Source of the DNA: a virus
Lineage: Duplodnaviria > Heunggongvirae > Uroviricota > Caudoviricetes
Strand: one strand, 5' to 3'
Length of the DNA stretch: 24,361 nucleotides
Virus record (IMG/VR): IMGVR_UViG_2700989535_000002
The notes beneath the pieces are model-generated. The model was not told the DNA's origin, did not search any database, and saw only the letters and a program-made list of their open reading frames with translations. Positions 2,126 through 12,753 of the stretch are shown piece after piece (positions within the stretch are counted from its first letter, which is position 1; the number at the start of each line of letters is the position of its first letter). Position numbers and translations under genes: made by a program.

Positions 2126-2401
2126 ATGAGCAAGCAAGTAACACTCATGACTGATGCGATTCCTTATCAGGAGTTCGCAAAACTAATAGGAAAATCGACA
2201 GGAGCGGTTCGTCGGATGATCGATAAAGGAAAGCTGCCTGTAATTGATATGACCGATCCACAATCAGCTTCAGGTCGTGCAGGTGAATATTGGGTATACC
2301 TTCCGGCATGGAATAACGGACTAAAACTGGCTTATGAAAGCCGCCCTAAAGAGATTCGTGACGGCTGGTTGATGTGGTTAGGTCTCGGTGAACCACGTTA
2401 A
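2126..2401 (+). CDS. cox: Cox (excision/directionality factor and Pc repressor)
   Basis: 91-aa ORF, first gene of the rightward early operon; same length and position as P2 Cox. Confidence 0.85.
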   Translation: MSKQVTLMTDAIPYQEFAKLIGKSTGAVRRMIDKGKLPVIDMTDPQSASGRAGEYWVYLPAWNNGLKLAYESRPKEIRDGWLMWLGLGEPR

Positions 2402-2411
2402 GGAGAACCGT

Positions 2412-2582
2412 ATGAATGAGCCTCGTTGTATTGCTCAGTTACTGCGTAACGAAAGCCCCAGGGCGATTGACTTCACCATCACCCACGGTAAGGGGCGTAA
2501 GGGAATCATTATCCGCACCAAAAAACAGAGTCCGTTAAAAAAGGCTCTGACCTTTCTGAAAAGCCGGAGGGTATGGAAATGA
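2412..2582 (+). CDS. Small early protein (P2 orf78 position)
   Basis: 56-aa ORF from ATG at 2412 with SD AGGAG 6 nt upstream. The six-frame track start at 2388 lacks an SD. Confidence 0.55.
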   Translation: MNEPRCIAQLLRNESPRAIDFTITHGKGRKGIIIRTKKQSPLKKALTFLKSRRVWK

Positions 2583-3079
2583 CAGTGATGACGCTCAATC
2601 TCGTTGAAAAACAGCCAGCAGCTATGCGCCGGATAATTGGTAAGCATCTTGCCGTTCCTCGCTGGCAGGATACATGTGATTATTATAATCAGATGATGGA
2701 GCGCGAACGGTTAACGGTTTGCTTCCATGCTCAGTTAAAACAGCGTCACGCAACGATGTGTTTTGAAGAAATGAACGACGTCGAACGTGAACGACTGGTA
2801 TGTGCAATTGATGAATTGCGTGGTGCATTCTCAAAACGCCGTCAGGTTGGCGCAAGTGAGTATGCATATATTAGTTTTTTAACAGTCAGTCAGCGTCGTA
2901 CTTTATTTATGCATGCCGGATTGACTGAAAAAGAATTCAACCAGCCATACTGGCGAATTAATGAAGAGTCATGTTACTGGCGTGATGCTTTATTCCGTGC
3001 ATTACGTGAATTATTCAGTCTGTTTGAGTATGCACCGACAATTCTGACGTCGGTAAAACCGGAGCAATATCTGCATTAA
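2579..3079 (+). CDS. B: Replication protein B
   Basis: 166 aa from ATG at 2579 (GGAGG 8 nt upstream; the track start at 2573 is too close to the SD). Same length and position as P2 B. Confidence 0.8.
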   Translation: MTVMTLNLVEKQPAAMRRIIGKHLAVPRWQDTCDYYNQMMERERLTVCFHAQLKQRHATMCFEEMNDVERERLVCAIDELRGAFSKRRQVGASEYAYISFLTVSQRRTLFMHAGLTEKEFNQPYWRINEESCYWRDALFRALRELFSLFEYAPTILTSVKPEQYLH

Positions 3080-3142
3080 GTAATTAACCAGAGTTTTTAA
3101 CGCACTTAATTGTGCGGGGCTTCTTTTTGCCTGGAGAAAGTT

Positions 3143-3367
3143 ATGCATACAGTTTCTGAAAATCAGTGCGGTATATACGCATTACTGCTGCAACAGGCCA
3201 GAACCGAAGCACAGGCCGACGCTGCGACGCGCTTTTCTTCTCATCTTGATGCCATGATTCGCCACATCACAAAGGCGGAGTTATCCCGCGTGGAGATAGT
3301 CGAGCTGCTCAGTCAGGAGTCGGAAAAATTTCACAATATCGGATTGTCTCGCGGGGAGGTGCTTTGA
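3143..3367 (+). CDS. Small early protein (P2 orf80 position)
   Basis: 74 aa from ATG at 3143 with SD GGAG 6 nt upstream; stop overlaps the next start. Confidence 0.6.
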
Positions 3368-3669
3368 TGTTCTGTTCTCGTTCAGTTGTATTACTGAATA
3401 ACGCCTTAAAAATCGCCGTTATGAAAAATGGCGATTTGTCTCTTATTCAACTTGGTCTTGATAAAGAAAAACGCGAAATAACTGAGTCTGTTATCGCGAT
3501 CTATCAGAACGAATTAAACCTCCTGTCTGATGTGGTCAATTTACTTGTTAAACGCGCTGTGTTTCACAAGCAAATCTCCTCCGTGGATGAACTGACGAAA
3601 TTAACGACAGAAATCGCCAGCTATTGCGCTGATGAATTTAAAAACCTTAACGACAAAAGGAACTGGTAA
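3364..3669 (+). CDS. Small early protein (P2 orf81 position)
   Basis: 101-aa ORF, overlapping start/stop with neighbours (operon-style coupling). Confidence 0.6.
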
Positions 3670-3893
3670 TGCCGGACAACGTAGATTTTATTCAGGAACA
3701 ACAGGCTGAATTACTGGAGCGCCAGATTAACGCGGCAAGGGTAAAACATTGCGGTGCTTCTGCGCTGGTTTGCGAAGAGTGTGACGCGCCAATACCTGCT
3801 GCCCGTCGTGCGGCTTACCCGTCAGCCACGCGTTGTGTTTCCTGTCAGTCAGTCTTTGAAGCAAAAAACAAACATTACCGGAGAACGGCATGA
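3669..3893 (+). CDS. TraR/DksA-type C4 zinc-finger protein (P2 orf82 position)
   Basis: 74 aa with paired CxxC motifs (CEECDAPIP ... CVSCQ) typical of TraR/DksA-family zinc fingers. Confidence 0.65.
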   Translation: MPDNVDFIQEQQAELLERQINAARVKHCGASALVCEECDAPIPAARRAAYPSATRCVSCQSVFEAKNKHYRRTA

Positions 3894-4165
3894 GTATTCG
3901 TATTGAAATTGGCGAACGTTATGTCGTTACCAGTGACAGCTTTCAGTTTATTCTCCACGAGAAAAAGAGAGCGGAAAGCGGTAAAAACGCCGGTCAGGAA
4001 TGGCTGGCGGTGGTTGGTTATTACCCGAAATTAAGCCAGCTCGTTTCAGGCCTGATGCATCACGATATTCTGACCGGAAGCGCAAAGTCTTTTGCTGATT
4101 TAAACGTGCAGGTTGAGCAACTCAGCAAGCGTTGTTCAGAGGCTTTTGGCTCATATGGCCGTTAA
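3890..4165 (+). CDS. Small early protein (P2 orf83 position)
   Basis: 91-aa ORF coupled to neighbours; ends 11 nt inside A. Confidence 0.55.
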   Translation: MSIRIEIGERYVVTSDSFQFILHEKKRAESGKNAGQEWLAVVGYYPKLSQLVSGLMHHDILTGSAKSFADLNVQVEQLSKRCSEAFGSYGR

Positions 4166-6443
4166 AGCCTCCGGGCGTTTTGTCCCTCCGTCAGCATTTG
4201 CCGCAGGCACCGGTAAGGCGTTTACCGGTGCTTATGCATGGAACGCGCCACGCGAGGCTGTCGGGCGCGAAAGACCCCTTACACGTGATGAGATGCGTCA
4301 GGTGCAAGGTGTTTTATCCACGATTAACCGCCTGCCTTACTTTTTGCGCTCGCTGTTTACTTCACGCTATGACTACATCCGGCGCAATAAAAGCCCGGTG
4401 CACGGGTTTTATTTTCTCACATCCACTTTTCAGCGTCGTTTATGGCCGCGCATTGAGCGTGTGAATCAGCGCCATGAAATGAACACCGACGCGTCGTTGC
4501 TGTTTCTGGCAGAGCGTGACCATTATGCGCGTCTGCCGGGGATGAATGACAAGGAGCTGAAAAAGTTTGCCGCCCGTATCTCATCGCAGCTTTTCATGAT
4601 GTATGAGGAACTCTGCGATGCCTGGGTGGATGCGCATGGCGAAAAAGAATCGCTGTTTACGGATGAGGCGCAGGCTCACCTCTATGGTCATGTTGCTGGT
4701 GCTGCACGTGCTTTCAATATTTCCCCTCTCTACTGGAAAAAATACCGTAAAGGGCAGATGACCACGAGGCAGGCATATTCTGCCATTGCCCGTCTGTTTA
4801 ACGATGAGTGGTGGACCCATCAGCTTAAAGGCCAGCGTATGCGCTGGCATGAGGCGTTACTGATTGCTGTCGGGGAGGTCAATAAAGACCGTTCTCCTTA
4901 TGCCAGTAAACATGCCATTCGTGATGTGCGTGCACGCCGCCAGGCAAATCTGGAATTTCTTAAATCGTGTGATCTCGAAAACAGGGAAACCGGCGAGCGC
5001 ATCGACCTTATCAGTAAGGTGATGGGCAGTATTTCTAATCCTGAAATTCGCCGGATGGAGCTGATGAACACCATTGCCGGTATTGAGCGTTACGCCGCAG
5101 CAGAGGGTGATGTGGGGATGTTTATCACGCTGACCGCGCCGTCAAAGTATCACCCGACACGTCAGGTCAGAAAAGGCGAAAGTAAAACCGTCCAGCTAAA
5201 TCACGGCTGGAACGATGAGGCATTTAATCCAAAGGATGCGCAGCGTTATCTCTGCCGTATCTGGAGCCTGATGCGCACGGCATTCAAGGATAATGATTTA
5301 CAGGTCTACGGTTTGCGTGTCGTCGAGCCACACCACGACGGAACGCCGCACTGGCATATGATGCTTTTTTGTAATCCGCGCCAGCGTAACCAGATTATCG
5401 AAATCATGCGTCGCTATGCGCTCAAAGAGGATGGCGACGAAAGAGGAGCCGCGCGAAACCGTTTTCAGGCAAAACATCTTAACCGGGGCGGTGCTGCGGG
5501 ATATATCGCGAAATACATTTCAAAAAACATCGACGGCTATGCACTGGATGGTCAGCTCGATAACGACACCGGCAGGCCGCTGAAAGACACTGCAGCGGCT
5601 GTTAGCGCATGGGCGTCAACGTGGCGCATCCCGCAATTTAAAACGGTTGGCCTGCCGACAATGGGGGCTTACCGTGAACTACGCAAATTGCCGCGCGGCG
5701 TCAGCATTGCTGATGAGTTTGACGAGCGCGTCGAGGCTGCACGCGCCGCCGCAGACAGTGGTGATTTTGCGTTGTATATCAGCGCGCAGGGTGGGGCAAA
5801 TGTCCCGCGCGATTGTCAGACTGTCAGAGTCGCCCGTAGCCCGTCGGATGACGTTAACGAGTACGAGGAAGAAGTCGAGAGAGTGGTCGGCATTTACGCG
5901 CCGCATCTCGGCGCGCGTCATATTCATATCACCAGAACGACGGACTGGCGCATTGTGCCGAAAGTTCCGGTCGTTGAGCCTTTGACTTTAAAAAGCGGCA
6001 TCGCCGCGCCTCGGAGTCCTGTCAATAACTGTGGAAAGCTCACCGGCGGTAATACTTCGTTACCGGTTCCCACGCCTTCTGAGCACGCCGCAGCAGTGCT
6101 TAATCTGGTTGATGACGGTGTTATCGAATGGAATGACCCGGAGGTCGTGAGGACGCTCAGGGGTGCATTAAAACACGGACTGAGAAGACCAAACCGTCAG
6201 CAAAGAAACGGAAGCCCGTTAAAACCACATGAAATTGCGCCATCGGCCAGACTGACCCGGTCGGAACGAATGCAAATCACCCGTATCCGCGTTGACCTTG
6301 CTCAGAACGGTATCAGGCCGCAGCGATGGGAGCTTGAGGCGCTGGCGCGTGGGGCAACCGTAAATTATGGCGGAAAAAAATTCACGTATCTGGTTGCTAA
6401 TGAGTGGTTCGGGTTTCAAGATGACGTGTCATTTTTCATATAA
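4155..6443 (+). CDS. A: Replication initiation endonuclease A (rolling-circle initiator)
   Basis: 762 aa from ATG at 4155 (track ORF begins at 4113). Large last gene of the early operon, same position and nearly same size as P2 A. Contains HxH-like GTPHWHMM and tyrosine-rich GYIAKYISKN segments typical of rolling-circle initiators. Confidence 0.85.
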   Translation: MAVKASGRFVPPSAFAAGTGKAFTGAYAWNAPREAVGRERPLTRDEMRQVQGVLSTINRLPYFLRSLFTSRYDYIRRNKSPVHGFYFLTSTFQRRLWPRIERVNQRHEMNTDASLLFLAERDHYARLPGMNDKELKKFAARISSQLFMMYEELCDAWVDAHGEKESLFTDEAQAHLYGHVAGAARAFNISPLYWKKYRKGQMTTRQAYSAIARLFNDEWWTHQLKGQRMRWHEALLIAVGEVNKDRSPYASKHAIRDVRARRQANLEFLKSCDLENRETGERIDLISKVMGSISNPEIRRMELMNTIAGIERYAAAEGDVGMFITLTAPSKYHPTRQVRKGESKTVQLNHGWNDEAFNPKDAQRYLCRIWSLMRTAFKDNDLQVYGLRVVEPHHDGTPHWHMMLFCNPRQRNQIIEIMRRYALKEDGDERGAARNRFQAKHLNRGGAAGYIAKYISKNIDGYALDGQLDNDTGRPLKDTAAAVSAWASTWRIPQFKTVGLPTMGAYRELRKLPRGVSIADEFDERVEAARAAADSGDFALYISAQGGANVPRDCQTVRVARSPSDDVNEYEEEVERVVGIYAPHLGARHIHITRTTDWRIVPKVPVVEPLTLKSGIAAPRSPVNNCGKLTGGNTSLPVPTPSEHAAAVLNLVDDGVIEWNDPEVVRTLRGALKHGLRRPNRQQRNGSPLKPHEIAPSARLTRSERMQITRIRVDLAQNGIRPQRWELEALARGATVNYGGKKFTYLVANEWFGFQDDVSFFI

Positions 6444-6619
6444 AACATTTCAAAATTCAATGTAATGAAAGCATATCGTATATCGCTTTAATATGTGTTA
6501 TTCTTCTTGGTTGTTAATGTTTGATTTTATATGAAAAAATATTATATATAGAAAGATCAAATACAACGGTTTACTTGTTATGATGCAATTATTGGTTAGT
6601 TAGTGAGATACATCGCCAT

Positions 6620-6860
6620 CAATTGGGTATTTTTTACCCGTGGAAAGTTAACACTTTCTACCGTTTACCCCGCGCAACGCCCCTGCCAGCGACAAGAGTC
6701 ACAGGACCAGGTGGTATGGCGTATGGGAATTCGAACCCTTTGGGCGACAAAGGGTTCGTGGAGCAGGGAGCTAGTGCTGTTCAATCTCATCCTTATGAGG
6801 GCGAACCATAGTGTTGGAGCAGACATACCGTTTGCACACTATGGGCATAAGGAGCAAATC
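6620..6860 (+). ncRNA. Candidate structured RNA / long 5' leader upstream of the RT operon (possible retron msr-msd)
   Basis: GC-richer than the flanking AT-rich spacer. Perfect hairpins: GAAAGT/ACTTTC (6643-6658), CGAACCCTTTG/CAAAGGGTTCG (6732-6758), and a composite stem CCTTATG..CCATAGTGT / ACACTATGG..CATAAGG (6791-6852) whose 3' arm overlaps the downstream SD. a1/a2 repeats not identified, so retron ncRNA identity is unproven. Confidence 0.3.
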
Positions 6861-7016
6861 ATGAAGAATGATAAATTAACCAACGAACAGCAGGCGCAGA
6901 ACAAGTCAAACCTGAAAAAGAGGGCTGGTTATGCTTGGGAATTATTCAAATGGGGTATTAGACTGTTTGATTTAGTCACTCGAGCACTGGGCTACTTAGA
7001 AGGGGGTGGTGAGTAA
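6861..7016 (+). CDS. Small 51-aa protein of unknown function
   Basis: ATG at 6861 with strong SD AAGGAG 6 nt upstream; polar N-terminus, amphipathic C-terminus (AGYAWELFKWGIRLFDLVTRALGYL). The longer GTG-initiated track ORF (6603) is not supported. Confidence 0.4.
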   Translation: MKNDKLTNEQQAQNKSNLKKRAGYAWELFKWGIRLFDLVTRALGYLEGGGE

Positions 7017-7052
7017 TGCGTCCTCCCTAGTTTCAATAGCATGGAGTTGCCT

Positions 7053-7361
7053 ATGTTACATAAAGCCCTTCGTTTAATAAGGCAATACCATAAAGAATCA
7101 ATAGTTGAGTTATCTTCATCTTTAGGTATTCCAAAAGACAAAATAGTATCGCTTGAAAGCGGAGTTTGGTCACCGTCGATTGAAGTCTTAGAGCGTTACG
7201 CCTCCCATTTCGACATACCAGTATCCTCTTTAGTATTCTTTTCGGAATCATTAGGCACGCAAGGCCGTTTGTCTAAGCGATTGCGTTTAAATTTAGCCGG
7301 TAAAGTTCTGGATGTTCTGGAGTGGGTAAGTAATAAAAATGAAAAAACGGAAAAAGCTTAA
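7053..7361 (+). CDS. XRE-family helix-turn-helix DNA-binding protein
   Basis: 102 aa from ATG at 7053 (GGAG 6 nt upstream). HTH_3-like segment LSSSLGIPKDKIVSLESGVWSPSIEVLERYASHFDIP. Its 3' end overlaps the RT start by 23 nt. Confidence 0.6.
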   Translation: MLHKALRLIRQYHKESIVELSSSLGIPKDKIVSLESGVWSPSIEVLERYASHFDIPVSSLVFFSESLGTQGRLSKRLRLNLAGKVLDVLEWVSNKNEKTEKA

Positions 7362-8289
7362 GGTTAATACTAAAAATAAATCTTATGACATAATGGATTC
7401 GCCATTTTACAAACTCAAAAGTAAAAGAAAACTGGCGAATTTGCTTTGTGTTAGTCTTGAAGAATTATACTCTTTGAGAAAAGATGAAGGAAACTATTCC
7501 GTTTTTGAGCAACTTTCTAAAAAAGGAAAAGCACGAAAAATACAAAAGCCTTTAGAAAAACTAGAACTTGTACATACACGAATTGCAAGTTTGTTATCAC
7601 GGATTGCTTTGCCAGAATATCTGCACTCGGGGAAGAAGAAGTGCTCTAATGTGACGAATGCTAAAGCTCATCTTAATAATGAAAAGATGATGACAACAGA
7701 TATTAAAGCTTTTTTTCCATCAACTACAAGAGGGATGATATTTTCTTTTTTCTTTTCGGTGATGAAAATGTCATCTGATGTTGCTGATGTTTTGTCCCAC
7801 ATATGTACTTGTCATGACCGATTACCAACAGGTAGTCGCATCAGTATGCCGTTGGCATATTTTGCAAATTCAAGAATGTTTGGTGAAATATATCAACTTT
7901 GCCAAAAGTTACGAGTTAACATGACTGTTTATGTTGATGATCTCACTTTTTCAGGTGGTAACGTAAATCGATTGTTTTGCGCTGTAATTCGTAAGATCGT
8001 TAATAAGCATGGACATGTTATACACCCAACGAAAACAAAATTATATGCCAGAGATAAGCCTAAGTTGGTAACTGGAGTTATTGTATTCGGTAATGCTTTA
8101 AAAGTTAGGAATGAGCAGCATTTTTTGATGGCTAGGGAAATAGATTATTGGAAAATAATTAAAGACGCCGAAAATGCGAGAGAAACAATCATTGCCAAAA
8201 AGCTCTTTGGCCGTTTGCATTCAATGGGAGTGATTGAGCAACGTTACAAATCGAAGGTGCTTACTTTAAAGGCTAATACTGCAAATTAA
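7339..8289 (+). CDS. Reverse transcriptase, retron-type
   Basis: 316 aa. NAKAH (NAxxH), TDIKAFFPS, LPTGSRISMPLAYFAN, YVDDLTFS (YxDD catalytic motif) and LVTGVIV (VTG) align motif-by-motif with retron RTs such as Ec86 as recalled. Alternative start at 7393 possible. Confidence 0.8.
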   Translation: MKKRKKLKVNTKNKSYDIMDSPFYKLKSKRKLANLLCVSLEELYSLRKDEGNYSVFEQLSKKGKARKIQKPLEKLELVHTRIASLLSRIALPEYLHSGKKKCSNVTNAKAHLNNEKMMTTDIKAFFPSTTRGMIFSFFFSVMKMSSDVADVLSHICTCHDRLPTGSRISMPLAYFANSRMFGEIYQLCQKLRVNMTVYVDDLTFSGGNVNRLFCAVIRKIVNKHGHVIHPTKTKLYARDKPKLVTGVIVFGNALKVRNEQHFLMAREIDYWKIIKDAENARETIIAKKLFGRLHSMGVIEQRYKSKVLTLKANTAN

Positions 8290-8412
8290 CATATTGAATG
8301 TATTGCATAAAAGCATCAATAATTAAAATGACTTGGCGTTAGTAACGCCGCAAGTGCAGGAATTTACTTTCGATGCAGGCGGTGTTGATTAGAAACCTCA
8401 GAAAGTAGTTAG

Positions 8413-8850
8413 CTATGAAGCTGACGTCACAAAATTAACGCCAAGAGTCAACAGGTTTGTCACTGCTCCAGCAATTACACCTGGAGTTCCGTCTTTTACT
8501 GCACTGATAATTTTATCACCCATCGTTTCATTACCGCCAAGTGCTTCGGGTTTTTTGTTGAGCACCGCGAGTGCTTTCTCGGTCAGGCGCACATCATGAA
8601 AACCGGTCTGATGGTCTGTTCCGTACAGAATATAGCCGTTTTCGCTTAGGAAAGTGAATGTGCCATCAACCACACTACGCAACTGATTCAGTGCTTTCAT
8701 TTCTGGTGAGTTAAGTTGGTCAAAGTAGTCATCAGGTAACGCGGCGTTAAATTTTTTGTAGGTGATGACTTGTGGTACAGGAAAGTTATCCCATAGCACC
8801 GCAAAGATTTCTGCCGTCTGTTGGTTGAATAATTCGAGATTTTTGGACAT
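8413..8850 (-). CDS. Hypothetical tail-anchored membrane protein (145 aa)
   Basis: Minus-strand ORF with SD AGGGA 7 nt upstream of ATG; soluble N-terminal ~115 aa and C-terminal hydrophobic helix (GTPGVIAGAVTNLLTLGVNFV). Convergent with the RT operon. Confidence 0.6.
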   Translation of the reverse strand: MSKNLELFNQQTAEIFAVLWDNFPVPQVITYKKFNAALPDDYFDQLNSPEMKALNQLRSVVDGTFTFLSENGYILYGTDHQTGFHDVRLTEKALAVLNKKPEALGGNETMGDKIISAVKDGTPGVIAGAVTNLLTLGVNFVTSAS

Positions 8851-9367: not shown

Positions 9368-9386
9368 GGCGAGGCGGGGAGAGCAT
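9368..9386. other. Candidate cos (cohesive end) site
   Basis: GGCGAGGCGGGGAGAGCAT matches the P2 19-nt cohesive end as recalled (GGCGAGGCGGGGAAAGCAC) at 17 of 19 positions; sits between A and Q as expected. Confidence 0.45.
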
Positions 9387-9461: not shown

Positions 9462-10730
9462 ATGGCATTGATTGAAGGATTTCGAATATCAAATTTCAGG
9501 TCTCTGAAGAACGTTACGTTAGGAAAAACTTGGAACGATAGAACAAAGAAACCATTGACACCACTTACGGTTGTTATTGGGCGTAATGGTTCTGGAAAAA
9601 GTTCGCTTTTTGATGCATTTGGTTTCTTGGCTGATGCCCTTACCTATGGGGTAGAAGAAGCATGTCATAAGAATGGTCGCGGTGGCTTCGAACGCTTACG
9701 GTCTGCAGGGAGTAGTGAGGATATTGAATTCGAGATTTACTATAGAGAATCACCAAAAGACCGTCCAATCACATATGAATTGTCAATTGGCATTGATGCT
9801 ACTGGAAGACCTATAGTTAAGAAAGAAAGGTTGCGTCAGCGCAGGAGAGGTCAAAATAGAGGGTGGCCTTTCTCTTTTCTTGAATTATACAATGGAGTAG
9901 GAAAGGTTTGGTCAGGGGAATCTTTGTCAGAAAAAAATGAAGAGCATGGCAATATTGATGTTTTGTTAAGTGAAGAGTCTAATGGAACTATGCCAATCGA
10001 GCTAAGCAATACTCAAATGCTTGGTATTGCTACTTTAGGCAACTTGAAAGAGCATCCGAGAATAGCCAGATTCAGAAAATTTATTGAAGGCTGGTATCTT
10101 TCTTATTTTACTCCTGATGCTGCAAGAGATTTGCCTCGAGTTGGCCCGCAGAAACATCTAAATAGAATAGGTGATAACTTAGGCAATTTTGTTCAGTATA
10201 TGGAAAGAGAACATCCCAAAAAATTTAGACAGGTTCTTGAGGATATAGCCCTGAAGATTCCAGGAATTATAAAGATAGATACAGAAGCATCACCTGATGG
10301 AAGATTGCTTTTAAGGTTTTTTAACAAGGGTTTTGATAAACCATTTTATGCTCAACAAATATCTGATGGAACATTAAAACTGTTTGCTTACATGCTTCTC
10401 TTGGAAGATCCTGACCCTGCACCGTTTGTATGTATAGAGGAGCCAGAGAACGGCCTGTATCATAAATTATTACAATCTCTTGCAGAGGAATTTAGGAGCC
10501 ACGCTACAGGTAAGAAAGGTGATTCTCAGTTGTTTGTAACTACTCATCAACCATATTTTGTGGATGCACTCAATCCAGAGGAAGTATGGATATTAGAAAA
10601 AGAATCAGATGGCTTTTCCGTGCTGAGTAGAGCATCTGACTATCCTGATGTGATGGCAATGTATGAACAAGGATTGCCGTTAGGAAGTTTATGGTACAGT
10701 GATCACATTGATAGCAAGGAATTTGACTGA
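9462..10730 (+). CDS. ABC-type / AAA_21-like ATPase (OLD/AriA/AbiLi-like)
   Basis: 422 aa from ATG at 9462 (GAGGAAG SD; the track start at 9399 is TTG). N-terminal FRISNFRSL ... VVIGRNGSGKSSLFDAF (Walker A); C-terminal FVCIEEPENGLYH (Walker B/D-loop) and FVTTHQPYF (H-loop). Confidence 0.85.
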   Translation: MALIEGFRISNFRSLKNVTLGKTWNDRTKKPLTPLTVVIGRNGSGKSSLFDAFGFLADALTYGVEEACHKNGRGGFERLRSAGSSEDIEFEIYYRESPKDRPITYELSIGIDATGRPIVKKERLRQRRRGQNRGWPFSFLELYNGVGKVWSGESLSEKNEEHGNIDVLLSEESNGTMPIELSNTQMLGIATLGNLKEHPRIARFRKFIEGWYLSYFTPDAARDLPRVGPQKHLNRIGDNLGNFVQYMEREHPKKFRQVLEDIALKIPGIIKIDTEASPDGRLLLRFFNKGFDKPFYAQQISDGTLKLFAYMLLLEDPDPAPFVCIEEPENGLYHKLLQSLAEEFRSHATGKKGDSQLFVTTHQPYFVDALNPEEVWILEKESDGFSVLSRASDYPDVMAMYEQGLPLGSLWYSDHIDSKEFD

Positions 10731-11362
10731 TGCATTATGAGATCTTAGTCGAGGGACAATGTGAACTAACTGCTCTTTCAATTCTATTACCTAAGATTAT
10801 TGGAGAGTATAATAATCCACATACTTGGAAAATACATAAACATAGAGGTAATGGTTCTATTCCTGATAACCCAGCATTAGCTCCAAAAATTTCAGATACT
10901 TCACTCTTGGGGCAATTGCCTGCAAAATTAAGGGCTTACTCCAATAATCCAGACCCTAATAGAAAAGTGATTGTATTATTAGATCTAGATGATAAAGATC
11001 GAGAATCGTTCCATACGGCTCTAATTGACTTGTTAAAATATTGTTCGAATCCGTTTGATGTGTCATTTCCTTTTGCAGAAGAGGAATTAGAAGCATGGTA
11101 CCTTGGTGATAGACAAGCATTGATAGCTTACAATGCAAAAATCAATATGACAAAACTAAATGGCTATATTCAAGACTCAATATGTGATACATGGCGTTTT
11201 TTATTAGAGGCTGATGAGCCTTCACTGTTAAAACTGAAAAAGAAAGATAAAAGACTGCTTGAAAAGAAAGTTTTCTGGGCTAAAAAAATTACTCCTCATA
11301 TGGATGTTGATAGGAATTTATCGCCTAGTTTTAATAGTTTTAAAGAATGTTTGCATAATTAA
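10730..11362 (+). CDS. TOPRIM-like small protein (DUF4276/DUF4435-style) partnered with the ATPase
   Basis: 210 aa; start overlaps the ATPase stop (TGATG). N-terminal ILVEGQCE and VIVLLDLDD (DxD) resemble TOPRIM/OLD-family nuclease motifs; EEELEAWYLGD downstream. Confidence 0.6.
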   Translation: MHYEILVEGQCELTALSILLPKIIGEYNNPHTWKIHKHRGNGSIPDNPALAPKISDTSLLGQLPAKLRAYSNNPDPNRKVIVLLDLDDKDRESFHTALIDLLKYCSNPFDVSFPFAEEELEAWYLGDRQALIAYNAKINMTKLNGYIQDSICDTWRFLLEADEPSLLKLKKKDKRLLEKKVFWAKKITPHMDVDRNLSPSFNSFKECLHN

Positions 11363-11730: not shown

Positions 11731-12753
11731 TCAGTCAAAATGATAAGGCTTGAACTTAATGACTTCCTTTTCTAACCAGTTATTGAGTTCGGCAATACGA
11801 GTCTGGAGTGGGATAAGTTCATTGCGGACAAAGACCTTTGCCACTTTCTCAATATCACCCAGTGACCCGACGTTCTCCGGCTTGCCGCCCATCAACTGAA
11901 AAGGAATGCGGTGCGCGTCCAGCAGGTCAGCGGCGCTGGCTTTTTTGATATTAAAAAAATCGTCCTTCGTTGCCACTTCACTGAGCGGGATAATTTTAAT
12001 GCCGTCGGCTTTTCCCTGCGGGGCATAGAGAAACAGATTTTTAAAGTTGTTGCGGCCTTTCGACTTGACCATGTTTTCGCGAAGCATTTCGATATCGTTG
12101 CGATCCTGCACGGCATCAGTGACGTACATGATGTATCCGGCATGTGCGCCGTTTTCGTAATACTTGCGGCGGAACAGCGTGGCTGACTCATTCAGCCAGG
12201 CAGAGTTAAGGGCGCTGAGATATTCCGGCAGGCCGTACAGCTCCTGATTAATATCCGGCTCCAGCAGATGAAACACGGAGCCGGGCGCGAAAGGTGTCGG
12301 CTCGTTGAAGGACGGCACCCACCAGTAAACATCCTCCTCCACGCCACGGCGGGTATATTTTGCCGGTGAGGTTTCCAGTCTGATGACCTTACCGGTGGTG
12401 CTGTAACGCTTTTCCAGAAATGCATTACCAAATACCAGAAAATCCAGCACAAAGCGGCTGAAATCCTGCTGGGAAAGCCATGGATGCGGGATAAATGTCG
12501 AGGCCAGAATATTACGTTTGACGTAAATCGGTGAGCTGTGATGCACGGCAGCACGCAGGCTTTTTGCCAGACCGGTAAAGCTGACCGGTGGCTCATACCA
12601 TCTGCCGTTACTGATGCACTCAACGTAATCCAGAATGTCACGGCGGTCGAGTACCGGCACCGGCTCACCAAAGGTGAATGCCTCCATTTTCGGGGCGCTG
12701 GCGGTCATTGTTTTTGCCGCAGGTTGCGGTGTTTTCCCTTTTTTCTTGCTCAT
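11731..12753 (-). CDS. Q: Portal protein
   Basis: 340-aa minus-strand ORF; first gene after the cos region, start overlapping the P stop; position and size as P2 Q. Confidence 0.85.
   Translation of the reverse strand: MSKKKGKTPQPAAKTMTASAPKMEAFTFGEPVPVLDRRDILDYVECISNGRWYEPPVSFTGLAKSLRAAVHHSSPIYVKRNILASTFIPHPWLSQQDFSRFVLDFLVFGNAFLEKRYSTTGKVIRLETSPAKYTRRGVEEDVYWWVPSFNEPTPFAPGSVFHLLEPDINQELYGLPEYLSALNSAWLNESATLFRRKYYENGAHAGYIMYVTDAVQDRNDIEMLRENMVKSKGRNNFKNLFLYAPQGKADGIKIIPLSEVATKDDFFNIKKASAADLLDAHRIPFQLMGGKPENVGSLGDIEKVAKVFVRNELIPLQTRIAELNNWLEKEVIKFKPYHFD

Follow-up and report, generated by a model that had tools for sequence, protein, structure and literature searches.

A predicted Type VI retron of the Vpa2/Eco12 kind in the gpA–gpQ slot of a P2-like prophage

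Gene content of the cassette

The window analysed here is the whole 24,361-nucleotide stretch of DNA of IMG/VR virus record IMGVR_UViG_2700989535_000002 (Caudoviricetes), and the element under study is the rightward cassette at positions 6576–8289. From its sequence this cassette is read as an intact anti-phage system, a Type VI retron resembling Vpa2 and Eco12; its parts are a reverse transcriptase (RT), a structured RNA, a small protein that binds DNA and a predicted toxin of 51 residues. The assignment draws on the gene content, family membership, RNA architecture with its covariation, co-varying repeats and genomic slot, all of which were observed directly. The unit runs in the order structured leader, small protein (SP), helix-turn-helix (HTH) protein and RT (SP-HTH-RT), and its three open reading frames (ORFs) are all full length (Table 1). 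It probably starts at the extended −10 element, slightly to the right of position 6560, from which a first-pass annotation of the same DNA had counted it. That annotation had proposed a retron operon of an HTH-associated type, which was borne out by matches to the PADLOC models RT_VI and HTH_VI, i.e. Type VI. Its further statement that such retrons have no worked-out mechanism has been overturned by two preprints on Type VI mechanisms, one on Retron-Vpa2 (Zhang et al., 2025; bioRxiv 10.1101/2025.10.22.683967) and one on Retron-Sen3 (Garcia-Rodriguez et al., 2026; bioRxiv 10.64898/2026.04.27.721009).

Table 1. Predicted features of the retron cassette and of the prophage genes and site that border it
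Feature	Position	Strand	Basis or remark
P2 gpA replication endonuclease, left border of slot	4155–6443	+	phrog_91, 1130 bits; RefSeq homologue 'replication endonuclease'
Candidate extended −10, TGtTATGAT	6576–6584	+	Read by eye; TA..AT invariant in nine loci
Predicted hybrid RNA (hyRNA), ~460 nt	6591–7052	+	msr-msd-like non-coding RNA (ncRNA), SP coding sequence and 3′ tail pairing back onto the ncRNA
Two 5′ stem-loops (6624–6639 and 6641–6660), msr-like part	6624–6660	+	Consensus structure
Long msd stem-loop	6669–6727	+	Conserved flanks, hypervariable centre; predicted main reverse-transcription template
Hairpin H1, 27 nt, 11 bp	6732–6758	+	Perfect inverted repeat; repeat copy 1, GGGCGAC (6742–6748), in loop and closing pair
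Inverted repeat 1 (IR1), UGGAGCAGGGAG	6759–6770	+	a2-like arm directly 3′ of msd; pairs with IR2
5′ arm of 8-bp helix	6775–6782	+	Partner 6885–6892 GAACAGCA (SP Glu-Gln-Gln); perfect inverted repeat; closes riboregulator arm
Riboregulator	6790–6853	+	Anti-RBS (ribosome-binding site) strand 6790–6797 UCCUUAUG pairs with 6846–6853 CAUAAGGA, over the SP Shine–Dalgarno (SD) sequence AAGGAG
SP, predicted 51-aa toxin, MKNDKLTNEQQAQNKSNLKKRAGYAWELFKWGIRLFDLVTRALGYLEGGGE	6861–7016	+	phrog_15287, 1.7e-32; distant-SP profile, 41 bits
Inverted repeat 2 (IR2), CUCCCUAGUUUCA	7023–7035	+	a1-like arm, starts 7 nt after the SP stop codon
Cro/C1 (XRE)-type HTH protein, 102 aa	7053–7361	+	HTH_VI, 7.7e-31 (PADLOC)
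Retron RT, Type VI, 316 aa	7339–8289	+	Catalytic YVDD at aa 198–201; RT_VI, 2.8e-105
cos-like site GGCGAGGCGGGGAGAGCAT, right border of tin/old side	9368–9386	+	Two mismatches to P2 cos; 0 expected by chance
Portal protein gpQ	11731–12753	-	phrog_68, 2.5e-174

The 316-aa RT possesses the five retron motifs in the order first described, namely NAKAH (aa 107), TDIKAFFPS (aa 120), LPTGSRISMPLAYFAN (aa 162), YVDDLTFS (aa 198) and LVTGVIV (aa 243, with VTG at 244–246). The RT_VI match covered RT residues 21–306 and profile positions 1–278 of 279 (349.6 bits), and the runner-up among the PADLOC models, RT_III-A, scored less than half as much (151.9 bits). The profile search against RVT_1 and retron models that had been proposed in the first-pass annotation also detected the Pfam family RVT_1, barely (5.5e-7; 29.9 bits against a cutoff of 29.6). 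The NCBIfam search returned sub-threshold models only, all of them retron RTs, and the PDB matches were retron RTs without exception. There were 355 homologues at E ≤ 1e-20, mostly of 314–320 aa, from Enterobacterales, Vibrio, Shewanella and other Gammaproteobacteria. The same variable locus of P2-like phages is known to hold, in P2-EC30, an RT of the Abi-P2 class (Odegrip et al., 2006, as described in later papers), which gives some reason to consider a non-retron class, whether Abi-P2, UG/DRT, group II intron or diversity-generating retroelement. The chance of such an identity is negligible: the NCBIfam and PDB matches are all to retron RTs, as are the 25 best of 37 PADLOC matches, with RT_VI far ahead, and these four classes were therefore ruled out. 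The motifs NAxxH and VTG, and the retron-type structured RNA immediately upstream of the operon genes, point the same way.

An HTH gene had likewise been recognized at first pass. The ATG at 7053, giving a protein of 102 aa, is most likely the true start rather than that at 7041 (106 aa), because GGAG lies 6 nt upstream, RefSeq WP_001310277.1 has the same start and the conserved Arg then falls at position 7, as in Vpa2. Pfam detected HTH_31/HTH_3 weakly, below threshold. The 3′ end of the HTH ORF, at 7361, overlaps the RT start by 23 nt, as had been noted. Type VI has been defined by a clade-3 RT, a Cro/C1 HTH protein of 91–110 aa and small accessory proteins (Mestre et al., 2020); at 102 aa, or 106 aa from the upstream ATG, and with its overlap of the RT gene, the HTH protein agrees with this description. 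By comparison with its relatives it would act as a repressor of reverse transcription and/or as an antitoxin.

A scan of species-representative genomes for relatives returned 80 loci. In about 25 closer ones, an ORF of 47–56 aa and an HTH gene of ~100 aa precede the RT gene with nearly constant spacing. One of these loci, L084 from Vibrio parahaemolyticus, encodes a 55-aa SP with K15, I39, F43 and F45 and an HTH protein with R7, the residues mutated in Retron-Vpa2; because the published mutated residues were all matched, L084 was treated as Vpa2 or a near-identical allele. The window agrees with it in the order hyRNA(SP)-HTH-RT, in the overlap of the HTH and RT genes and in the small size of the SP (51 aa against 55 aa). 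The RT is 54.6 % and the HTH protein 48 % (4.5e-36) identical to those of L084, and HTH R7 is conserved. SP residues K15, V39, L43 and Y45 match K15, I39, F43 and F45 of Vpa2 by number, so that K15 and the hydrophobic positions 39, 43 and 45 are common to both.

The 51-aa ORF itself was found where it had been placed, ahead of the HTH gene with an ATG at 6861 and a stop codon ending at 7016. The earlier view that it is part of no recognized architecture has been overturned, since Type VI retrons canonically have the order SP-HTH-RT, with the SP as their toxic effector; by analogy, the ORF is taken to be the expected toxin gene. It is annotated in RefSeq as WP_001762320.1 and has its own PHROG family. 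A profile built from distant SPs only (the Vpa2 SP included) matched it with E 7e-9 at Z = 1e6 and gave zero matches in the other reading frames of the window. The SPs of the relatives have a pattern in common: the N-terminus is polar and contains QQ or WQ, and there are in addition a basic stretch, a hydrophobic helix and a tail of acidic residues. AlphaFold2 modelled the SP as a single long helix (predicted local distance difference test score 76) from a seq­uence alignment of seven members, which is too shallow for the published two-helix core.

Since the SP coding region is base-paired with covarying pairs, which indicates constraint at the RNA level and has likewise been reported for Sen3, and since the searches with Pfam, NCBIfam and PADLOC models gave no match to the ORF, it might be supposed to be untranslated, a mere RNA scaffold or leader, with the HTH protein or a neighbouring gene as effector. 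This is very improbable, given that an ORF of 47–56 aa with the same residue pattern occupies the same position even in loci whose DNA is unalignable, that the profile match is specific to the reading frame, and that the SD AAGGAG (6849–6854) lies 6 nt before the ATG, an ideal distance. In addition, the small proteins of both Vpa2 and Sen3 were shown to be the toxin (both preprints).

Predicted hybrid RNA and co-varying repeats

In Retron-Vpa2, which comes from V. parahaemolyticus and is placed in the 'Large' lineage of Type VI, the RT, the HTH protein and an hyRNA of ~470 nt form a complex in which the HTH protein represses reverse transcription (Zhang et al., 2025). An 86-nt multicopy single-stranded DNA (msDNA) accumulates only after phage triggers (lambda Red), is required for derepression of the SP and works in trans. 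A 63-nt msDNA covers the long stem, and a 23-nt 5′ extension is essential for SP translation. The authors proposed a contact between conserved 7-nt direct repeats (Zhang et al., 2025).

The leader of the window cassette was confirmed to be structured, as had been claimed at first pass. The minimum free energy (MFE) of 6570–7060 was −166.3 kcal/mol (z = −4.09), a value equalled by none of 100 dinucleotide shuffles. The proposed check against msr-msd RNA families came to nothing, an Rfam scan of 6300–8500 at E ≤ 10 giving only two chance lncRNA matches. A scan for consensus sigma-70 promoters upstream of the RNA found none, the candidate extended −10 being without a −35 match; placed from this element, the 5′ end of the hyRNA would lie near 6591. 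Nine loci could be aligned closely from the promoter to the HTH start, and their RNAalifold consensus contained 133 pairs, 24 of them with compensatory changes. Conservation in this alignment peaks in non-coding blocks. In single-sequence folds, the MFE architecture of the hyRNA was the same in the window as in L084.

The two 5′ stem-loops include compensatory pairs at alignment columns 87/99 and 109/116, and both hairpins are also present in the L084 fold. In the long msd stem, lineage-specific indels and substitutions are confined to mid-stem, and the flanking pairs are conserved, some of them covarying among the nine loci. H1, 10 of whose 11 pairs show compensatory changes across 32 loci, is predicted to be the 3′ end of the msd and thus the template for the 5′ stem-loop of the msDNA. 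The msd stem would then correspond to the 63-nt msDNA stem of Vpa2 and H1 to its 23-nt 5′ extension. In L084, the long stem and H1 together measure exactly 86 nt, the published full length of Vpa2 msDNA; the msDNA of the window is predicted by analogy to be ~90 nt, copied from ~6665–6758.

Directly 3′ of the msd, IR1 pairs with IR2 beyond the SP stop codon, both in the window MFE structure and in the nine-locus consensus. The IR2 block CCTCCCT.GTTTCAA is almost invariant in the nine loci although it is non-coding. Equivalents of changed sequence are present in Vpa2 (UCGAGACGGGGG with CCCCCUAGUUUCGA) and in three further loci (L014, L015 and L008). Shuffle tests on single sequences were weak, since G-rich and C-rich segments pair regardless, and support for this pairing comes from its conserved position and from the change of both arms between lineages. 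Within the nine-locus alignment the long-range helices are nearly invariant and hence uninformative for covariation; the same is true of the 8-bp helix 6775–6782 with 6885–6892, whose invariance in the nine loci leaves no covariation information.

The internal loop of the riboregulator carries repeat copy 2 (GGGCGAA, 6799–6805), with an inner hairpin at 6806–6844. Further predicted elements are a start-codon hairpin and a long, imperfect helix into which the SP coding region folds. An alternative 10-bp pairing, 6592–6601 with 6874–6883, would join the 5′ end of the RNA to SP codons 5–8; it shows compensation from G-C to A-U in two loci and crosses IR1–IR2, so that this pairing and that of 6759–6770 with 7023–7035 are either alternatives, which may form a conformational switch, or a pseudoknot.

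The predicted structure, as judged by fold, consensus and covariation, thus has the features of a Vpa2-type hybrid RNA. Its 5′ part has the two 5′ hairpins, the long msd stem and the 27-nt hairpin with a repeat in its loop; its switch has the SD-sequestering riboregulator with the second repeat in the internal loop, and the start-codon hairpin; and its 3′ part has the SP-coding arm and the 3′ tail pairing next to the msd.

With the canonical retrons (Ec86/Eco1, Ec48/Eco6 and Se72/Sen1) the window shares a retron-clade RT with NAxxH, YxDD and VTG, a predicted stem-loop template in a neighbouring ncRNA with putative inverted-repeat arms, and, by analogy with its relatives, the logic of abortive infection that guards recombination and RecBCD. 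It differs from them in that the toxin mRNA is part of the retron RNA and the a1-like arm lies ~265 nt downstream of the msd; moreover, to judge by its relatives, msDNA of this type would not be abundant at rest and would act as an activator, not as an antitoxin. A search for a 5′ a1 arm that could pair with the post-msd segment found no duplex better than those of shuffled sequences (178 of 300). The position of the a1-like arm beyond the toxin gene may point to a priming geometry unlike that of canonical retrons.

A covariance model of the RNA core (6728–6866) gave a single hit in the window, at 6728–6866 (171.8 and 149.2 bits for R1 and R2). After one iteration it also located the core immediately ahead of the SP gene in 32 loci, L084 among them. 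In the resulting alignment 94.5 % of cells were paired and 33 of the 34 pairs had compensatory changes, counts that derive from a model-fitted alignment and so are inflated toward the modelled structure. The covariation score was 0.730, compared with 0.171 for shuffles (none of 500 reached 0.730) and at most 0.092 for controls with slid partners. When 83-nt segments were folded independently by MFE, the motif of anti-RBS, loop, hairpin and RBS was recovered in most of 27 loci, with differing helix sequences.

The repeats of the H1 loop and the riboregulator loop were extracted from the covariance-model alignment. Both copies read GGACGAA in Vpa2, TGGTGAC in two Alcanivorax loci, GGTGAC in a metagenome-assembled genome (MAG) of Legionellaceae, GGGTGAA in Pseudohongiella, TGGCGAC in Yersinia aldovae, GGCGACACC in Acinetobacter, AGCGAAG in Nitrosomonas and GGGCGAGA in a MAG of Oceanospirillaceae. 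Among the loci in which both copies were readable, the variable position was never C in one copy but T in its counterpart, an observation on related lineages that carries no P value. Concerted change of this kind is what the msDNA-riboregulator model would predict, as the complement of copy 1 in the msDNA would pair with copy 2 in the RNA. The lineage-wise co-variation of the repeats may be the trace left in evolution by a direct kissing contact of the msDNA with the mRNA, and it provides independent comparative support for the msDNA-riboregulator model.

Distribution and prophage slot

The chromosomal locus L084 lies beside hipA and rpoD. More distant Type VI loci (L031 and beyond) have RTs of 29–40 % identity and different, mostly longer, SPs. 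Retron-Sen3, from Salmonella enterica, belongs to the lineage cl2075 and has a 79-aa SP (Garcia-Rodriguez et al., 2026). The SPs of cl2075 measure 75–79 aa; at 51 aa, the SP of the window falls outside this range and aligns with the SPs of 47–56 aa, including that of Vpa2. On these relationships, and with Sen3 compared through its published description, the window appears to group with Vpa2 and not with the Sen3 lineage and its 79-aa SP.

The cassette was found in 100 of 5,426 complete Escherichia coli genomes (~2 %), always on the chromosome, with identities of ≥99 % in 10 genomes, 95–99 % in 18, 80–90 % in 71 and 60–80 % in one. E. coli carries at least four alleles (≥99 %, 96 %, ~83 % and a divergent C5 type), and the window cassette is 99.9 % identical to E. 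coli chromosomal cassettes. Copies in E. coli that are labelled only 'reverse transcriptase family protein', 'HTH' and 'hypothetical protein' can now be named as a Type VI retron that encodes a small-protein toxin. Retron-Eco12, an E. coli Type VI retron whose whole operon was cloned with its native promoter, defends against lambda-vir and has no detectable basal msDNA (Zhang et al., 2025). The window cassette may be Eco12 or an allele of it.

Two loci, one in E. coli C5 (L090; NZ_CP010122.1, 3144–4573) and one in Enterobacteriaceae UBA5654 (L004), carry a divergent Type VI retron with an RT ~64 % identical and an RNA core of ~78 % DNA identity. It stands outside a P2 prophage, beside yeiP and YkgJ-family genes, and the cassette therefore moves independently of P2. 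In Catenovulum and Pseudoalteromonas (L025, L027 and L029; ~2640–3050), an 88-aa ORF comes after the RNA core and extends as far as the RT start, a Type VI-like variant that has no separate HTH gene; about 22 % of Type VI loci have been reported to be without an HTH gene (Garcia-Rodriguez et al., 2026). In the E. coli records NZ_LR890334.1, NZ_CM128599.1 and NZ_CP115376.1, the retron lies at record positions 2290–4246 or 2298–4128. Many 'complete' E. coli records thus begin exactly at the start of P2 gpA, and rotation software may take this prophage gene as the origin.

The placement of the cassette in the tin/old cargo slot of P2, as claimed at first pass, was upheld by gpA on its left and by the cos-like site and portal gene gpQ on its right. 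The segment 9050–9377 could be aligned with linear genomes of P2-like phages (Midge and SW9) at their right ends, which places the prophage's cohesive-end site inside the window. The GC content of the cargo is 0.31–0.44, against 0.51–0.58 for the backbone. The interval between gpA and gpQ is a defence hotspot of P2-like phages, and retrons are among the systems found in it (Rousset et al., 2022; PMC9122126). The cargo of the window lies in this interval, between the end of gpA at 6443 and gpQ, and adjoins the cos-like site. The cassette also occupies the P2 slot of other E. coli prophages, of Peduovirus P22H1 and of a Klebsiella phage; in every P2-like case sampled it follows gpA directly, and the neighbours on its other side vary.

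Other genes share the interval. A second defence candidate in the hotspot, the pair HEC-01A (AAA_21 ATPase, 2.6e-190) and HEC-01B (7.5e-81) at 9462–11362 (+), lies between the cos-like site and gpQ, on the opposite side of cos from the retron. Its 2-kb segment had no megablast match in the 5,426 complete E. coli genomes, unlike the 99.9 %-identical retron. A 145-aa ORF (8413–8850, −; phrog_2266, 2.4e-61; WP_000042038.1), to which no function was assigned and in which no domain was found, converges on the RT gene, with a terminator-like hairpin between the two at 8335–8349. This ORF matches 91 E. coli genomes and accompanies the retron in several P2-like prophages and the Klebsiella phage; it is missing in L088, L089 and P22H1.

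Mode of action and meaning

The window probably works in the Vpa2 mode, to which we give a probability of roughly 60 %. Transcript ends, msDNA, trigger, toxicity and defence are here attributed by analogy with the relatives. In the Vpa2 mode, a constitutive promoter would yield the ~460-nt hybrid RNA, which would be both the msr-msd-like template and the mRNA of the 51-aa toxin. With the SP ribosome-binding site locked in the helix 6790–6797 with 6846–6853, the SP would stay untranslated. The RT, the HTH protein and the hyRNA would form a complex in which the HTH protein restrains reverse transcription, and the scant cDNA would be turned over by RecBCD. Once an infecting phage supplied recombination or anti-RecBCD functions like those of lambda Red/Gam, ~90-nt single-stranded DNA (ssDNA) from ~6665–6758 would accumulate. 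The 5′ hairpin of this ssDNA, carrying the complement of repeat copy 1, would pair with copy 2, beside the anti-RBS strand, and open the riboregulator; translation of the SP would then arrest the cell (abortive infection) and protect the lysogen population.

Retron-Sen3 offers another mode, in which RT-dependent ssDNA (112 and 145 nt) and SP are constitutive, the HTH protein is a protein antitoxin and surveillance is of RecBCD, whose loss on infection releases the SP; two RNA conformers were proposed (Garcia-Rodriguez et al., 2026). The RNA scaffold would on this account organize the complex rather than switch translation. Such a mode is plausible for the window, if unlikely. It was published for an enterobacterial SP-HTH-RT Type VI retron with the RBS in a basal stem and an IR1–IR2 pairing, to which that of the window is comparable, and the alternative pairing 6592–6601 with 6874–6883, with its G-C to A-U compensation, suggests two conformers here as well. 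The two systems are further alike in an ncRNA within ~280 nt of the SP start that has a variable long stem, and in the pairing of the ncRNA to sequence past the SP stop codon; the trigger of Sen3 is the lambda Red operon. However, the 79-aa SP of Sen3 has an N-terminal extension of ~25 residues and a C-terminal amphipathic helix (the proposed HTH interface), whereas that of the window resembles the 55-aa SP of Vpa2, and the RT, the HTH protein, the SP profile and the RNA model all tie the window to Vpa2. Control in Sen3 is post-translational, through the HTH protein, whereas the SP and RNA of the window are of the Vpa2 kind. Concerted change of the repeats is predicted by the msDNA-riboregulator model, and Eco12, in E. 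coli, lacks detectable basal msDNA.

Several points weigh against the Vpa2 mode. Sen3 has a similar RNA scaffold and likewise a sequestered RBS, yet its ssDNA and SP are constitutive, so that this mode is not proved by features of the RNA alone. The covariation counts are subject to the inflation described above. The two repeats of the window have only six of seven nucleotides in common and differ in the last base. Pairwise, the SP of the window is weakly similar to that of Vpa2 and barely alignable. In contrast to canonical retrons, no branching G was identified, as no conserved G adjoins IR2, and the priming geometry was not identified. Finally, the studies of Vpa2 and Sen3 are preprints. 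Other differences from Vpa2 are the repeat itself (GGACGAA in Vpa2, GGGCGA(C/A) in the window) and the setting, the window being known from its sequence, in an enterobacterium and a P2-like prophage, and L084 being chromosomal in Vibrio.

It is quite improbable that the cassette is a decayed or silent remnant which has kept its ORFs and lost its function in defence. No sequence feature speaks for this; none of the three ORFs is truncated, the catalytic YVDD is preserved along with the rest of the RT motifs, and the RBS, both repeats and all helices are intact. Moreover, 10 complete E. coli genomes have copies at ≥99 % and another 90 have related alleles, each with annotations for all three genes.

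With the old/tin cargo of P2 the retron has in common the slot between gpA and cos/gpQ and AT-rich composition; neither its proteins nor its mechanism is related to Old (an ATPase-Toprim nuclease) or Tin. The exclusion of lambda by P2 old depends on lambda red/gam (the Spi phenotype), the functions that trigger Type VI retrons. The retron might, as a tentative and rather doubtful proposal, be a functional replacement of old, tripped by the same lambda red/gam by way of an RNA–DNA switch.

The kind of system, its architecture and mechanism, its occurrence in E. coli and the hotspot have all been published previously, and this retron opens no new category. What is new here is limited to a well-preserved prophage-borne member, the comparative support from the co-varying repeats and the covarying riboregulator, and the idea of a replacement of old. 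As a natural, prophage-borne, enterobacterial example of the Vpa2 type, the window is convenient for a test of the msDNA-riboregulator model in native host and carrier. Since it occupies the old/tin slot, it would seem that P2-like phages exchange modules of unrelated mechanism, all of which may guard against one target, the recombination and anti-RecBCD functions of phages.

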